Source: a virus (Duplodnaviria; Heunggongvirae; Uroviricota; Caudoviricetes). Taken from it: a stretch of DNA of 16,353 nucleotides. Below, one piece after another: positions 2,776-12,700 of the stretch; position 1 is the first letter of the stretch; every line of letters starts with the position of its first letter. The notes below the pieces were generated by a model, which was given only the letters and a program-made list of their open reading frames with translations, had not been told where the DNA came from and made no database searches. Location: the IMG/VR virus record IMGVR_UViG_2718218139_000006. The stretch is one strand, 5' to 3'. The translations under genes were made by a program, and so were the position numbers.

Positions 2776-3015
2776 CTATTTCCTGCGTATGGCACGTAAC
2801 TTCTTAATGTGTTCTGCCGTTTCGATCTCTTCTGCTATCCGATCTGCATCAGCTTTATTCACAGGTTCAAAGTCATGATTAAAGCGGAACATGCTGGCGA
2901 TACATGTTCTGCCTTTTCGGATGTAGTGAACTTTGTTGTGGGTAGAACGCAGGATTTTGCAGGGAGTGCCGTGGTGATCGACGTACCAGGTGTTAGGAAA
3001 AATGATTCTGAACAT
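2776..3015 (-). CDS. Hypothetical small protein (79 aa) in the early-left operon position
   Basis: ATG ORF with a good Shine-Dalgarno (GAGGTG, 4-nt spacer before the ATG at 3015), co-oriented with xis/int. No family recognised. Confidence 0.5.
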   Translation of the reverse strand: MFRIIFPNTWYVDHHGTPCKILRSTHNKVHYIRKGRTCIASMFRFNHDFEPVNKADADRIAEEIETAEHIKKLRAIRRK

Positions 3016-3062
3016 TTTTACACCTCAATTGGACGATGTTGAAATTTGCTGCTTTGAGGCCA

Positions 3063-3281
3063 TCACAGTCCCCATTGTTTGTTCTTAAGTTCGATCTCCT
3101 CCTGGCAACTTGCACAAGTCCGACAACCCTGAACGGCCAGGCGTCTTCGTTCATCTATCGGATCGCCACACTCACAACAATGAGTGGCAGATATAGCCTG
3201 GTGGTTCAGGCGGCGCATTTTTATTGCTGTGTTGCGCTGTAATTCTTCAATTTCTGATGCTGAATCAATGATGTCTGCCAT
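3063..3281 (-). CDS. DksA/TraR-family C4 zinc-finger protein (phage TraR-like)
   Basis: 72 aa with CxxC-(17 aa)-CxxC (CECGDPIDERRRLAVQGCRTCASCQ) and size like TraR/lambda Orf73-type proteins. Same orientation as the xis/int operon. Confidence 0.65.
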   Translation of the reverse strand: MADIIDSASEIEELQRNTAIKMRRLNHQAISATHCCECGDPIDERRRLAVQGCRTCASCQEEIELKNKQWGL

Positions 3282-3330
3282 CTTTCATTAATCCCTGAAT
3301 TGTTGGTTAATACGCTTGAGGGTGAATGCG

Positions 3331-3356
3331 AATAATAAAAAAGGAGCCTGTAGCTC
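3331..3356 (-). terminator. Candidate intrinsic terminator on the minus strand
   Basis: Minus-strand hairpin GGAGC-TACAG-GCTCC followed by TTTTTTATTATT, just downstream of the 3380 stop. The stem is only 5 bp, so it is weak. Confidence 0.35.
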
Positions 3357-3379
3357 CATGATGATTTTGTTTTTCATGT

Positions 3380-3595
3380 TCACCGTTCCTTAAAGACGCC
3401 GTTTAACATGCCGATCGCCAGGCTTAAATGAGTCGGTGTGAATCCCATCAGCGTTACCGTTTCGCGGTGCTTCTTCAGTACGCTACGGCAAATGTCATCG
3501 ACGTTTTTATCCGGAAACTGCTGTCTGGCTTTTTTGATTTCATAATTAGCCTGACGGGCAATACTGCGAAGGGCGTTTTCTTGCTGAGGTGTCAT
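3380..3595 (-). CDS. Hypothetical small protein (71 aa from the ATG at 3595; an alternative upstream start at 3727 would give 115 aa)
   Basis: ORF MTPQQENALRSIARQANYEIKKARQQ... in early-left orientation, followed by the candidate terminator. Its 5' region overlaps the plus-strand Q-like ORF, so one of the two starts is probably wrong. Confidence 0.35.
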   Translation of the reverse strand: MTPQQENALRSIARQANYEIKKARQQFPDKNVDDICRSVLKKHRETVTLMGFTPTHLSLAIGMLNGVFKER

Positions 3596-4191
3596 TGAAC
3601 AAGTCCCATGTCGGCAAGCATACATACAAACGAAAGAAACCGCGCATTCTGGATGAAGTGACCGGCAGGTTAATAACGCTGGATAATCCGCCGATACCCG
3701 GTAAGCAGTCACGGGCGAAAGGCTCATCCATTGCCCTGGTCAGTCCGATCGAGTTCTCAACATCATCATGGCGCCGCGCGGTTCTGTCTCTCGAAGAACA
3801 TCAGAAAGCGTGGTTGCTGTGGAGTTACAGCGAAAGTGTTCGCTGGGAACATCAGGTCACCATAACGCAGTGGGCATGGAGCGAGTTTAAGACTCTGTTG
3901 GGTACCAGGAAAATTGCAGGTAAGACACTGGAACGTTTGAAGAAGTTGATCTGGCTGGCGGCACAGGATGTGAAGAACGAGCTGGCAGGGCGTAAGACCT
4001 ATGAATACCAGGAGTTGGCATCACTGGTGGGAGTGACATCAAAAAACTGGTCTGAGACATTTACTGAACGCTGGGTTGCAATGAAGCACATTTTTCTACA
4101 GCTTGATAGCCAAGCTTTATTGCTTTTAACGAAAACACGTTCAAAACAAAAGACCACATTTTCACAGCAAGATATTGCAAAACTGGATTAA
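3589..4191 (+). CDS. Putative late-gene regulator (Q-antiterminator-like by position), HTH-like segment near the C-terminus; start uncertain, possibly 5'-truncated
   Basis: 200-codon ORF immediately upstream of a terminator-rich leader and the lysis cassette, the canonical Q position. Contains an HTH-like stretch (YQELASLVGVTSKNWSETF). There is no in-frame ATG near the 5' end (only GTG/TTG candidates) and no recognised similarity to lambda Q. Confidence 0.35.
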   Translation: MSLNKSHVGKHTYKRKKPRILDEVTGRLITLDNPPIPGKQSRAKGSSIALVSPIEFSTSSWRRAVLSLEEHQKAWLLWSYSESVRWEHQVTITQWAWSEFKTLLGTRKIAGKTLERLKKLIWLAAQDVKNELAGRKTYEYQELASLVGVTSKNWSETFTERWVAMKHIFLQLDSQALLLLTKTRSKQKTTFSQQDIAKLD

Positions 4192-4260
4192 AAATCATAT
4201 ATTTTATGTAAATCTGATATTTTGCCAATGTTGTACGCACTGGCCGTAATCCAAATTCAA

Positions 4261-4296
4261 GCCCGAGGTTTAAAGCCTTGGGCTTTTCTGTTTCTG
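4261..4296 (+). terminator. Candidate intrinsic terminator / structured late-leader element
   Basis: Hairpin GCCCGAGG-tttaaag-CCTTGGGC (8 bp with one G-U pair) followed by a U-rich tract (ttttctgtttctg). Confidence 0.45.
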
Positions 4297-4372
4297 GGCG
4301 GTGAGTATCCTTCCAACGTACCCCAGCCAGGGTGTCTTCAGCTGTTGAGTTGATATTGCTTAACCCTCTGTT

Positions 4373-4398
4373 GCCAGCTACATGCTGGCTTTTTTATT
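4373..4398 (+). terminator. Candidate tR'-like intrinsic terminator between the Q-like gene and the lysis genes
   Basis: Hairpin GCCAGC-tacat-GCTGGC followed by TTTTTTATT. Confidence 0.55.
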
Positions 4399-4512
4399 CC
4401 AGGCTTGCGGGGAGCATCAACTCCGTGCTTTGTCGTTAAATTACCCCGTGAGCCTGATTTCTGACATTTAACGTCCCGGCCTTTTGTCGGCGGCGAAACA
4501 TTGGCTATTCAT

Positions 4513-4818
4513 ATGCACGAAAAAGAGAGCCTTGCCGGAGCGTTCTGGCTCGTTTTGCTGATCATCGCAGGTTGGGGCGGTCTGGTCCGCTACCTGATAG
4601 ATGTGAAGCAGAGTAAAGCAACGTGGAGCTGGATAAATGCTTTGGCTCAGATAGTGGTGTCGGGATTCACCGGTGTTATTGGTGGCCTGATCAGTATCGA
4701 AAGTGGATTCAGTATTTACATGATTCTCGCGACAGCGGGGATTAGTGGTGCGATGGGTTCGGTTGCACTGACATACTTCTGGGAACGACTGACAGGGGTG
4801 AAAAATGCAAAATCTTAA
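4513..4818 (+). CDS. Holin (not lambda S-like), about 101 aa from ATG 4513; the ORF track begins at TTG 4501
   Basis: Small protein with several hydrophobic transmembrane-like segments and a charged C-terminus, directly upstream of and overlapping the endolysin gene. Confidence 0.7.
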   Translation: MHEKESLAGAFWLVLLIIAGWGGLVRYLIDVKQSKATWSWINALAQIVVSGFTGVIGGLISIESGFSIYMILATAGISGAMGSVALTYFWERLTGVKNAKS

Positions 4819-5281
4819 TCCTCAGCGTAAAGCTTTCCTCGATATGGTGGCATGGTCAGAAGGAACGGATAACGGACGGCAGAAAACCAGAAATCATGGT
4901 TATGACGTCATTGTAGGCGGAGAGCTATTTACTGATTACTCCGATCACCCTCGCAAACTTGTCACGCTAAACCCCAAACTCAAATCAACAGCAGCCGGAC
5001 GTTATCAGCTTCTTTCACGCTGGTGGGATGCTTACCGTAAGCAGCTTGGCCTGAAAGACTTCTCCCCCAAAAGCCAGGACGCAGTGGCATTGCAGCAGAT
5101 TAAAGAACGTGGCGCTTTACCGATGATTGATCGCGGTGATATTCGTCAGGCAATTGACCGTTGCAGCAATATCTGGGCTTCACTGCCGGGCGCTGGTTAT
5201 GGTCAGTTCGAGCATAAGGCTGACAGCCTGATTGCAAAATTCAAAGAAGCTGGCGGAACGGTCAGAGAGATTGAGGTATGA
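4805..5281 (+). CDS. R: Endolysin R (lytic transglycosylase), lambda R homolog
   Basis: 158 aa; from residue 8 (QRKAFLDM...) onward matches lambda R as I recall it, while the first 7 residues differ. Confidence 0.9.
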
Positions 5282-5739
5282 GCAGAGTAACCGCGATTAT
5301 CTCCGCTCTGGTTATTTGCATCATCGTCTGCCTGTCTTGGGCTGTTAATCATTACCGTGATAACGCCATTACCTACAAGGCCCAGCGCGACAAAAATGCC
5401 AGAGAACTGAAGCTGGCGAACGCGGCAATTACTGACATGCAGATGCGTCAGCGTGATGTTGCTGCGCTCGATGCAAAATACACGAAGGAGTTAGCTGATG
5501 CTAAAGCTGAAAATGATGCTCTGCGTGATGATGTTGCCGCTGGTCGTCGTCGGTTGCACATCAAAGCAGTCTGTCAGTCAGTGCGTGAAGCCACCACCGC
5601 CTCCGGCGTGGATAATGCAGCCTCCCCCCGACTGGCAGACACCGCTGAACGGGATTATTTCACCCTCAGAGAGAGGCTGATCACTATGCAAAAACAACTG
5701 GAAGGAACCCAGAAGTATATTAATGAGCAGTGCAGATAG
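5278..5739 (+). CDS. Rz: Spanin inner-membrane subunit Rz
   Basis: 153 aa, [58 protein letters not shown]..., matching lambda Rz. ATGA start/stop overlap with R. Confidence 0.9.
5498..5680 (+). CDS. Rz1: Spanin outer-membrane lipoprotein subunit Rz1, embedded in the +1 frame of Rz
   Basis: 60 aa, [24 protein letters not shown]... with a lipobox (VVGC) and a proline-rich stretch, matching lambda Rz1. Confidence 0.85.
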
Positions 5740-5740
5740 A

Positions 5741-5762
5741 GTTGCCCATATCGATGGGCAAC
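5741..5762. terminator. Candidate bidirectional terminator hairpin between convergent Rz and bor
   Basis: Perfect 9-bp stem GTTGCCCAT-atcg-ATGGGCAAC lying exactly between the Rz stop (5739) and the bor stop (5771). Confidence 0.5.
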
Positions 5763-5770
5763 TCATGCAA

Positions 5771-6064
5771 TTATTGTGAGCAATACACACGCGCTTCCAG
5801 CGGAGTATAAATGCCTAAAGTAATAAAACCGAGCAATCCATTTACGAATGTTTGCTGGGTTTCTGTTTTAACAACATTTTCTGCGCCGCCACAAATTTTG
5901 GCTGCATCGACAGTTTTCTTCTGCCCAATTCCAGAGACGAAGAAATGGTGGGTGATGGTTTCCTTTGGTGTTACTGCTGCCGGTTTGTTTTGAACAGTAA
6001 ACGTCTGTTGGGCACATCCTGTAATAAGCAGGGCCAGCGCAGTAGCGAGTAGCATTTTTTTCAT
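5771..6064 (-). CDS. bor: Bor lipoprotein (serum-resistance-associated lysogenic conversion protein)
   Basis: 97 aa, MKKMLLATALALLITGCAQQ... with signal peptide and lipobox (LITGC); matches lambda Bor. Confidence 0.9.
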   Translation of the reverse strand: MKKMLLATALALLITGCAQQTFTVQNKPAAVTPKETITHHFFVSGIGQKKTVDAAKICGGAENVVKTETQQTFVNGLLGFITLGIYTPLEARVYCSQ

Positions 6065-8562: not shown

Positions 8563-12056
<3,494 letters not shown>

Positions 12057-12060
12057 CGTC

Positions 12061-12636
12061 ATGTCAGAGCAGAAAAAGACCTGGGCGGCTGAAGACCAGC
12101 TTCGCGGGAGCTGGATGGCAGGCCTGAAGTCCGGCTGGAGTGAGTGGGAAGAGAGCGCCACGGACTGTATGTTGCAGGTAAAAAGTGCAGCCACGCAGAC
12201 CTTTGATGGTATTGCACAGAATATGGCGGCGATGCTGACCGGCAGTGAACAGAACTGGCGTAGCTTCACCCGTTCCGTGCTGTCCATGATGACAGAAATT
12301 CTGCTTAAGCAGGCAATGGTGGGGATTGTCGGGAGTATCGGCAGCGCCATTGGCGGGGCTGTTGGTGGCGGCGCATCCGCGTCAGGCGGTATGGCTTACA
12401 GCCGTGTGTCGACTTTCTCCGGGGATTATCTCCGCGTAACTGACAACAAGGGGAAAACGCACGACGTGCTGACCGGAAGTGATGACGGTCGCCACAGCAA
12501 CACGTCTCTGGCGTGGGGAGCTGGCGTGCAGTTTAACCCGACCGAATCCGTGGCCATTGATATTGCTTATGAAGGCTCCGGCAGTGGCGACTGGCGCACT
12601 GACGGTTTCATCGTGGGTGTCGGTTATAAGTTCTGA
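12061..12636 (+). pseudogene. Chimeric ORF: internal C-terminal segment of tail tape-measure H fused in frame to the C-terminal about 80 residues of outer-membrane protein Lom
   Basis: First 110 residues (MSEQKKTWAAEDQLRG...GGAVGGGASASGG) match the C-terminal region of lambda gpH; the remainder (...SLAWGAGVQFNPTESVAIDIAYEGSGSGDWRTDGFIVGVGYKF) is the Lom/Ail-family C-terminus. Junction near 12388-12393. Confidence 0.8.
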
Positions 12637-12663
12637 TTAGCCAGGTAACACAGTGTTATGACA

Positions 12664-12689
12664 GCCCGCCGGTTCAGGCGGGCTTTTTT
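12664..12689 (+). terminator. Intrinsic terminator downstream of the lom remnant
   Basis: 7-bp GC-rich stem GCCCGCC-ggttca-GGCGGGC followed by TTTTTT. Confidence 0.7.
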
Positions 12690-12700
12690 GTGGGGTGAAT

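Follow-up and report, generated by a model that had tools for sequence, protein, structure and literature searches.

The stretch analyzed here (the window, 16,353 nucleotides [nt] in full) represents a lambdoid E. coli prophage in an advanced state of decay, and the region in question is the gap between an open reading frame (ORF) related to the late antiterminator Q (ORF 3589–4191) and the holin gene that begins the lysis cassette. This gap is very likely a late switch of the phage 82 type with a broken resident Q, and the second of its two terminators belongs to a separate, holin-proximal module. The original prediction, made from the letters of the DNA, had placed two terminator-like hairpins in the gap and read them as the tandem terminators of a pR′-type late leader. 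Both hairpins, here called T1 and T2, were confirmed at those positions by folding (z = −4.4 and z = −3.6, respectively), and the reading as a pR′-type leader was upheld, since the published landmarks of the phage 82 pR′ promoter fit with +1 at 4210 and a terminator 63–88 nt past the Q stop codon recurs in relatives. The two hairpins did not prove to be a single device, as T1 goes with Q82 and pR′ and T2 goes with the holin under another Q or none. The features of the gap are as follows.

3619–4191, plus strand: 5′-truncated Q gene of the phage 82 family, equal to residues 41–229 of 82 Q.
4175–4203, plus strand: pR′-type sigma-70 late promoter, −35 TTGCAA at 4175–4180, 17-bp spacer at 4181–4197 where a Q-binding element would be expected, −10 TATATT at 4198–4203.
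4210–4235, plus strand: predicted start and sigma-70-dependent pause module, start at A4210, AAA at 4210–4212.
4215–4223 (+6 to +14), plus strand: extended −10-like pause element TG-a-TATTTT.
4224–4226 (+15 to +17), plus strand: GCC.
T4234/A4235 (+25/+26), plus strand: predicted pause.
4210–4292, plus strand: predicted ~80-nt leader transcript ending at T1, an IsrJ relative (Rfam RF01393).
4259–4295, plus strand: T1, tR′-type intrinsic terminator of the 82-type module, 12-bp stem, 3-nt loop, tract UUUUCUGUUUCU.
4320–4372, plus strand: conserved structured stretch leading into T2, with hairpins H1 (4320–4333) and H2 (4338–4353) and then single-stranded TATTGCTTAACCCTCTGTT.
4373–4398, plus strand: T2, intrinsic terminator of the lysis-cassette module, stem GCCAGC/GCTGGC (4373–4378 / 4384–4389).
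4400–4456, plus strand: P1 element, a 13-bp helix of 4400–4412 with 4444–4456 and a conserved unpaired core GCTTTGTCGTTAAAT at 4427–4441.

The promoter overlaps the end of the Q gene. A promoter scan returned TTGCAA-17-TATATT with a score of 9 of 12, and the Q stop codon (4189–4191) falls within the spacer. Both hexamers, at an unchanged distance, are found again in phage 434 (Q82-like), ahead of isrJ in the Salmonella prophage Gifsy-1, and in Q82-type loci of IMG/VR, and Q82-type genes of Escherichia, of Klebsiella-type loci, and of Salmonella keep the block of promoter, start, and pause with them. The spacer AACTGGATTAAAA stays conserved where no Q adjoins it, as in Gifsy-1, where the block follows an inserted isrK-orf45-anrP module and is preceded by the last Q-like bases GATTGCAAAACTGGATTAAAA. 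A Q-binding element between −35 and −10 belongs to the general description of Q-dependent late promoters, as distinct from mapping specific to phage 82 (PMC4914094). No promoter had been identified by eye in the original prediction, and the scan match is indeed weak by itself, but the predicted promoter at 4175–4203 appears validated by this homology.

Published work on the phage 82 pR′ promoter supplied four landmarks: the wild-type transcript starts with AAA, the −10-like pause element carries an extended −10 motif, GCC occupies +15 to +17, and the main pauses are at +25 (U) and +26 (PMC5001585). All four fit the window in a single register with +1 at A4210, seven bases past the −10, which is the probable transcription start. 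Homology with more distant E. coli Q82-type loci (79–86% identity) stops at ~4237, just beyond the pause site, as would be expected of a Q gene, Q-binding site, and pause element that evolve together. A 5′ leader hairpin at 4224–4244 was not significant when taken alone (z = −1.0). On the minus strand, the best promoter-like site of the region (4228 to 4201, TTGGCA-16-TAAAAT, 10 of 12, which would read antisense into Q) was not conserved in 434 or in Klebsiella-type leaders and was treated as a probable chance match. Also on the minus strand, TTGCAATATCTTGC at 4167–4180 is a perfect TTGC-N6-TTGC box of the CII type that overlaps the palindromic pR′ −35 TTGCAA; it is the sole such match in the window, where 1.3 are expected by chance, its counterpart in phage 434 bears the annotation paQ CII site, and the prophage remnant here has no cII gene.

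T1 is the hairpin nearer to this promoter. Its G+C core, GCCCGAGG/CCTTGGGC (4261–4268 / 4276–4283, 8 bp), is the 8-bp stem with U-tract previously noted at 4261–4296, and the stem in full extends to 12 pairs (4259–4270 / 4274–4285, loop TAA) followed by TTTTCTGTTTCT to 4295. Folded alone, T1 reached −18.4 kcal/mol (z = −4.4), and none of 200 shuffled sequences folded as well. A simple scan of positions 3000–6000 yielded 11 terminator-like sites compared to 3.6 ± 2.1 in shuffles, with T1 and T2 ranking at the top. Across 81 distinct upstream contexts from relatives, the first terminator lies 63–88 nt past the stop codon of Q82-type ORFs (229–265 residues). The T1-type stems of these relatives are 8–12 bp long and differ in sequence (GCCCGAGG/CCTTGGGC, GCCACTGG/CCGGTGGC, GCCTCGC/GCGGGGC, and GCCTCGGC/GCCGGGGC), Klebsiella-type and Salmonella relatives carry different stems at the same offset as T1, and within E. 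coli a compensatory variant was found (GAGG/CCTT to GAAG/CTTT). Consensus folding of MAFFT-aligned 82-type leaders gave little formal covariation for T1 owing to misalignment, so the evidence for T1 is the recurrence of its position with different stems.

Transcription from A4210 to T1 would produce a leader RNA of ~80 nt that is related to IsrJ. In a permissive Rfam scan, isrJ (RF01393) matched window 4207–4286 over the full model with 27.8 bits (E ~0.002–0.004), a score under the family's gathering score of 37. The same family was matched above its gathering threshold directly after full-length Q82-type genes in four relatives (L123, L128, L092, and L087; 52–70 bits), and isrJ of Gifsy-1 itself scored 100 bits. 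IsrJ, an Hfq-binding small RNA (sRNA) of Gifsy-1, has the same promoter block as the window, an identical first 14 nt (UGUAAAUCUGAUAU), a conserved CAAAUUCAAGCC linker, and a two-hairpin layout ending in a terminator; the sequences of its 5′ hairpin and terminator stem differ, and in Gifsy-1 the isrK-orf45-anrP module separates Q from the isrJ promoter. From this we infer that the RNAs of the isrJ family are probably what Q82-type late promoters produce when their leader is terminated, with the window encoding a putative diverged member of ~80 nt. IsrJ is reported to be highly transcribed in lysogens in every condition tested (PMC7067206), which fits a constitutive pR′. In the literature examined, no statement was found that IsrJ is a terminated late-leader RNA. 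In the Gifsy-1 sequence (L009), isrJ (2501–2608) stands directly behind an 82-type pR′ block (TTGCAA-17-TATATT, AAA start, TGATAT pause element), with a Q82-like gene ~850 nt upstream of the block, and the isrK region at 1685–1883 matches the Rfam families C4 antisense RNA and c4-a1b1 (antirepressor control of the P1/P7 type) above their gathering scores.

T2 is the GC-rich stem with six Ts that had been placed at 4373–4398. Its loop is TACAT, and the stem is followed by TTTTTTATT (4390–4398). Folded alone, T2 reached −11.9 kcal/mol (z = −3.6), a value equaled by two of 200 shuffles. Among relatives, GCTTTTTTATT is invariant and the stem varies; a BLAST alignment likewise gave differing stem sequences next to an invariant GGCTTTTTTATT. 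With a Q82-type gene upstream, T1 lies at a fixed offset and T2 lies 184 to ~950 nt away, and the space between them holds zero to four tRNA genes or morons in relatives. The window represents the minimal, empty form of this slot, as ARAGORN detected no tRNA gene, whole or remnant, within it. In relatives, the T1-type and T2-type terminators flank one to four tRNA genes (for Asn, Phe, Thr, Arg, or Met), the tRNA-bearing loci including L014 (3040–3359), L092 (9848–10167), L087 (5260–5335), and L083 (9014–9089), among others. The most plausible role of T2 would be that of an insulator that keeps unmodified polymerases in the cargo slot from running on into the lysis genes.

A subset of the T2 loci shares the stretch that precedes T2, with covariation in its second hairpin, H2, and a single-stranded part (ATTGC..ACCCUC..UUGCC) that runs into T2. 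Its start in relatives falls one or two bases past the CCA end of a tRNA gene. Positions 4320–4398 have the predicted layout of a terminator-ended small RNA. This layout, with its hairpins, conserved single-stranded ACCCUC stretch, and terminator, bears on a different explanation, namely that the leader persists in a dead prophage mainly because it yields useful trans-acting sRNAs, the IsrJ-like RNA of ~80 nt, an RNA ending at T2, or both. In its favor are the homology to IsrJ, which has a virulence phenotype, the precedents of the pR′ RNAs StxS and IsrJ and of the holin-adjacent Pas sRNAs (PMC7547250, PMC13192938), and the conservation of the leader at 95% identity or above in ~790 E. coli genomes. 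However, recent spread of one phage module would explain this conservation equally well, and an sRNA function is compatible with the antitermination role rather than exclusive of it. As the main reason for the persistence of the leader, we regard trans-acting sRNAs as unlikely, and retain the late switch as the preferred reading of the gap.

Within the 60 nt past T2, a BLAST alignment of relatives revealed an invariant GCTTTGT.G.TAAAT between complementary arms, corresponding to the P1 element. P1 of the window folds with −26.1 kcal/mol (z = −4.8). An exact pattern scan of IMG/VR returned at least 120 contigs, with 43 distinct versions among the matches listed, and each version folds into the same 12–13-bp P1 helix. 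A covariance model (R1) built from 11 diverged members scored window 4386–4459 at 62 bits and also matched PhiR47_2, E. coli C41, mEp237, and UPF_BP1; with this model, no P1 was found in lambda, P22, 434, Gifsy-1, 2B8, or DLP12 of K-12. Over 33 distinct sequences, 93.8% of the cells were paired and eight of the 12 pairs changed on both sides, whereas none of 500 shuffles reached this level and a slid 3′ partner was only 23–51% paired. RNAalifold recovered the P1 helix independently. Searches of 4100–4600 against Rfam 15 up to E = 10 produced no match besides isrJ and chance-level hits elsewhere.

P1 marks a mosaic junction where the modules on either side are unrelated, and HNH endonuclease genes adjoin it in some loci, which might suggest an element acting at the DNA level, for instance an inverted repeat bound by a protein, a linker for recombination, or the target of a homing endonuclease. 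This is improbable given the pairing itself. On the plus strand, G-U and U-G pairs are frequent (12 UG at pair 22–69 and 10 GU at pair 24–68), each of which would turn into an A-C mismatch in a cruciform or on the opposite strand, and this favors an RNA over a DNA structure. Pairing also survives register shifts and bulges, and both the orientation of P1 and its distance to the holin start are always the same. As an RNA structure, P1 would most plausibly act on the read-through late mRNA, through processing, stability, or holin translation. RNase E prefers RN|WUU, and the invariant GC|UUU of P1, which lies in a single-stranded internal loop, fits this preference as a candidate site only. Two other possibilities for P1 were rejected: a promoter within the core (TAAATT of the window variant is −10-like, but the majority of variants read TAAATC, and a usable −35 is lacking) and a likeness to ops (RfaH) or boxA, judged against their consensus sequences, for which the partial matches were not conserved across variants.

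The distribution of T2 and P1 differs from that of T1. By BLAST, window 4333–4520 or 4387–4457 recurs before holins in phages with other late regulators, among them E. coli C41, mEp237, and the P22-like Salmonella phage UPF_BP1. Upstream of T2, and of the combined stretch of T2 and P1, the neighbors are Q genes of the Q82 type (PF06323) or of the Qlambda type (PF03589, Qlambda family), an HNH endonuclease gene, or unknown ORFs. In 121 of 127 instances among the matches listed, an ORF of at least 50 codons starts 31–72 nt past the P1 core, and representative downstream ORFs are holins of PF16931, PF04971, PF16080, and PF05106, with PF16083 in the window. At three loci (the window, mEp237, and UPF_BP1), the P1 helix, which encloses GCTTTGTNGNTAAAT, lies 45–57 nt before the holin start. 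The window carries the complete arrangement of a terminator ending in GCTTTTTTATT, a 12–13-bp helix around GCTTTGTNGNTAAAT, and a holin gene after it. The named hosts of phages with this arrangement are Klebsiella, Enterobacter, Salmonella, and Escherichia, and the T2 and P1 stretch is almost never annotated in them.

T1 thus travels with the Q82/pR′ module, and T2 and the structure downstream of it with the holin; because T2 accompanies the holin in phages with another Q type or no adjacent Q, the two hairpins are not one device. Tentatively, and with somewhat less than even confidence, we propose that T2 and P1 together form an undescribed, portable cis-regulatory RNA cassette of enterobacterial temperate phages that couples or uncouples the cargo slot and the lysis genes. 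In this proposal T2 would be the insulating terminator, with an sRNA-like structured RNA ahead of it in many loci that starts directly behind tRNA genes, and P1 would present the invariant single-stranded GCUUUGUYGNUAAAU. If so, the cassette could, for example, be a defined site at which RNase E processes the mRNA or which governs its stability, or it could bind a factor that sets holin expression and lysis timing, whichever Q family drives the operon. T2 with P1 is a concrete candidate for a new layer of control on phage lysis genes, spanning five holin Pfam families and four genera.

ORF 3589–4191 matches Pfam PF06323 (Phage_antiter_Q) with 8e-80, a family that represents Q82 among three unrelated Q families (PMC9388147). 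The match begins at profile position 34 of 220, compared to position 1 for a full-length relative. In a protein alignment with the 229-residue 82 Q, 91% amino acid identity was obtained over residues 41–229 (the alignment starting from 32/41), and the first 11 codons of the listed ORF, which starts from GTG, are unrelated to 82 Q. At the DNA level, identity to the phage 82 Q gene is 94.6%, only from window 3621 (codon 41) rightward. To the left, window 3400–3622 is 100% identical to early-left DNA of lambda-like phages, and a divergent early-left gene (3380–3595) adjoins the Q fragment, followed by xis and int. The deletion junction falls at window 3596–3621, where early-left DNA is fused to codon 41 of the Q82-type gene. 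Because early-left DNA is joined directly to codon 41, the immunity, replication, and nin regions plus the first 40 Q codons are evidently deleted.

The same junction, to the base, is present in at least seven complete E. coli genomes. Among the other leader-carrying genomes listed, matching starts at the junction (query position 222); they have the DNA from the Q fragment rightward in common with the window but do not share its early-left DNA. In PhiR47_2 and in IMG/VR loci where the upstream DNA was examined, Q is full length. The missing N-terminus is conserved in full-length E. coli and Klebsiella-type relatives, with the motif MNTQYLQYVR.QLIVATADLSGATKGQL, and RefSeq annotates the identical sequence as a pseudogene, 'incomplete; missing N-terminus'. 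The gene is not an intact, expressible Q, as codons 1–40 are replaced and divergent early-left genes lie upstream. The resident Q is very probably dead, which would leave the lysis and morphogenesis remnants silent unless a Q82-type protein is supplied in trans. The Q-like function that had been proposed for this ORF is therefore correct as to family (PF06323 at 8e-80, 91% identity to 82 Q) and not as to integrity, and, the ORF not being an intact Q, the leader cannot serve as an argument for its function.

Since 189 of the 229 residues are kept at 91% identity and an in-frame GTG is present, one could suppose that ORF 3589–4191 still yields an active antiterminator and that the switch is autonomous. 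A promoter-like site at 3658–3687 might be added to this, though it lies downstream of that GTG. An active product is nonetheless quite improbable, because the missing 40 residues are conserved in the family (positions 1–33 of the Pfam profile and the shared N-terminal motif), the pR operon that normally drives Q is deleted, and the RefSeq call is a pseudogene.

Several points weigh against a phage-82-type switch with a dead Q and a separate holin-proximal module. The promoter match alone is not significant, with five sites found where 3.5 ± 1.8 are expected, the U-tract of T1 is interrupted, and the isrJ score of the window stays beneath the gathering score. The phage 82 record X92588 ends at the Q stop codon, so the original phage 82 leader is not directly comparable; exact strings of six window segments were sought in order to locate the published t82 or pR′82 sequence, and none matched. 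T1 is presumed to be the laboratory 't82' terminator. The inactivity of the truncated Q would follow from the conservation of its missing 40 residues. The alignment on which covariation in P1 was counted had been fitted to the model, and the pattern used for the collection fixed 24 positions, all of them outside the helix (the U-run and the core). The statistical weakness of the promoter match, and the fact that T1 would also stop upstream transcripts, could suggest that the gap has no promoter and that the hairpins are 3′ terminators of the early-right (Q) operon, but this is hardly credible when Q82-type genes of Escherichia, Klebsiella-type, and Salmonella loci are accompanied by one conserved block of −35, −10, start, and pause, when Gifsy-1 isrJ keeps the block with an antirepressor gene rather than Q directly upstream and a 74-nt primary sRNA starts there, and when the published 82 pR′ landmarks fit base for base.

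For the preferred reading, a phage-82-type late switch, the proposed sequence of events is as follows. Host sigma-70 RNA polymerase would initiate constitutively at A4210 from TTGCAA-17-TATATT, by homology to the experimentally defined system, after which sigma-70 would re-bind the extended −10-like TGaTATTTT (+6 to +14) and the complex would, again by homology, pause at +25/+26. Without Q, transcription would terminate at T1 and release the IsrJ-like RNA of ~80 nt, and molecules that leak through would stop at T2, giving an RNA of ~187 nt. A full-length Q82-family protein bound between −35 and −10 would engage the paused complex and, with NusA, render it terminator-resistant, so that the modified polymerase would pass T1 and T2 and continue into the holin, endolysin, Rz, and structural genes. 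Loading of Q82, the sigma-70-dependent pause, NusA, and terminator-resistant elongation are the mechanism described for phage 82 (PMC4914094, PMC5001585). With the resident Q lacking codons 1–40 and its upstream operon, the switch is most likely locked off unless another prophage supplies a Q82-type protein. T2 and P1 would form part of the holin-proximal module, an architecture read from the sequence and a function that is presumed.

The remaining features of the window are consistent with a prophage remnant. In the closest genomes it adjoins icd, and the closest matches to the window are Shiga toxin-producing E. coli (STEC) and bovine isolates at 99.7% identity. E. coli 2014C-3011 and SMN152SH1 reach 99.7% over the window, an O157:H7 leader is 97.8% identical, and the leader of the intact phage PhiR47_2 is 98.4% identical. 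The entire 371-nt interval is present at 95% identity or above in ~790 of 5,426 complete E. coli genomes. The gene order is given here from left to right.

Left, minus strand: int, xis, and a few early-left genes.
Rightward: Q fragment, gap, holin, endolysin, Rz, bor, ybcV, ybcW, ylcI, nohD, and terminase.
Rightmost: truncated portal gene, truncated tape-measure gene, and tail-fiber genes.
4472–4495, plus strand: hairpin upstream of the holin start codons, with a possible role only.
4501–4818, plus strand: holin gene, first of the lysis cassette, listed as an ORF from TTG 4501, with the RefSeq start at ATG 4513.

The portal gene has an internal stop and is truncated, and the tape-measure gene is present only as a C-terminal fragment (window ~10660–12700, from the annotation of L005). 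The head and tail genes between the two are missing, and with these losses the element is a remnant unable to form particles. The holin belongs to PF16083 (8e-22), and the RefSeq annotation of identical DNA concurs. The hairpin before it, folded alone, reached −11.8 kcal/mol and was not significant (z = −0.55); analogous hairpins in relatives overlap the Shine-Dalgarno sequence on inspection by eye. Two in-frame holin starts, TTG 4501 and ATG 4513 (M-A-I-H-M), follow the hairpin (4472–4513), and this combination of a dual start and a hairpin recalls the dual-start/sdi arrangement of lambda S.

The flagged feature is thus a textbook one, a prophage copy of the Q-dependent late switch of phage 82, which was among the systems used to elucidate sigma-dependent pausing and antitermination by Q. 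Its core is already-known biology, and the T2 and P1 cassette and the link to IsrJ are the only parts that may be new. With Q truncated, the lysis and packaging genes would be switchable only by a Q82-type protein from another prophage, and supply of Q in trans is relevant to the way in which the numerous lambdoid prophages within STEC strains may activate one another. IsrJ as the terminated leader of a Q82-type promoter would explain its constitutive expression, and a homologue appears to be present in hundreds of E. coli genomes.

In comparison with known systems, the window is closest to the late region of phage 82, with which it shares the Q family (PF06323, 91% amino acid identity), a promoter over the Q stop codon, the AAA start, the extended −10-like pause element, GCC at +15–17, U at +25, and an intrinsic terminator within ~80 nt. 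It differs from phage 82 in that Q lacks its first 40 codons and the upstream operon, and the leader was matched through published landmarks. Another parallel is the 6S RNA of lambda, which is 194 nt long. Lambda 6S RNA and StxS (258 nt, processed to 74 nt) resemble the leader of the window in a constitutive pR′, an immediate terminator, a short RNA in lysogens, and Q-dependent read-through, and differ in unrelated sequences, another Q family, and other lengths (PMC7547250). Terminated pR′ RNAs are documented as sRNAs, and StxS shows that such RNAs can be regulators (PMC7547250).

The sRNAs PasA and PasC lie directly before holin genes in other prophages and resemble T2 as terminator-ended small RNAs immediately 5′ of a lambdoid prophage holin (PMC13192938). 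No link to the Pas sRNAs was established for the stretch before T2, and no sequence similarity to them was detected in a comparison that did not include the Pas sequences themselves. Phage 2B8, which is said to carry pasC, has a different pre-holin terminator and no P1. Where pasC is placed in 2B8 (L133, 5782–5815), a strong terminator, GCCGTCAGTG...CACTGGCGGC followed by six Ts, stands ~50 nt before a P21-type holin, and terminators immediately preceding holin genes may be a recurrent pattern. The slot between T1 and T2 in relatives likewise resembles the cargo slot between tR′ and the lysis genes in other phages, which holds tRNAs in phage L and Sf6, where tRNA genes lie at the 5′ end of the late operon (PMC8022706), and tRNAs and stx in Stx phages. 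The literature examined on this slot contained no mention of a T2 and P1 boundary element. Compared to the phages that carry such cargo, the window has an empty slot without a tRNA gene.

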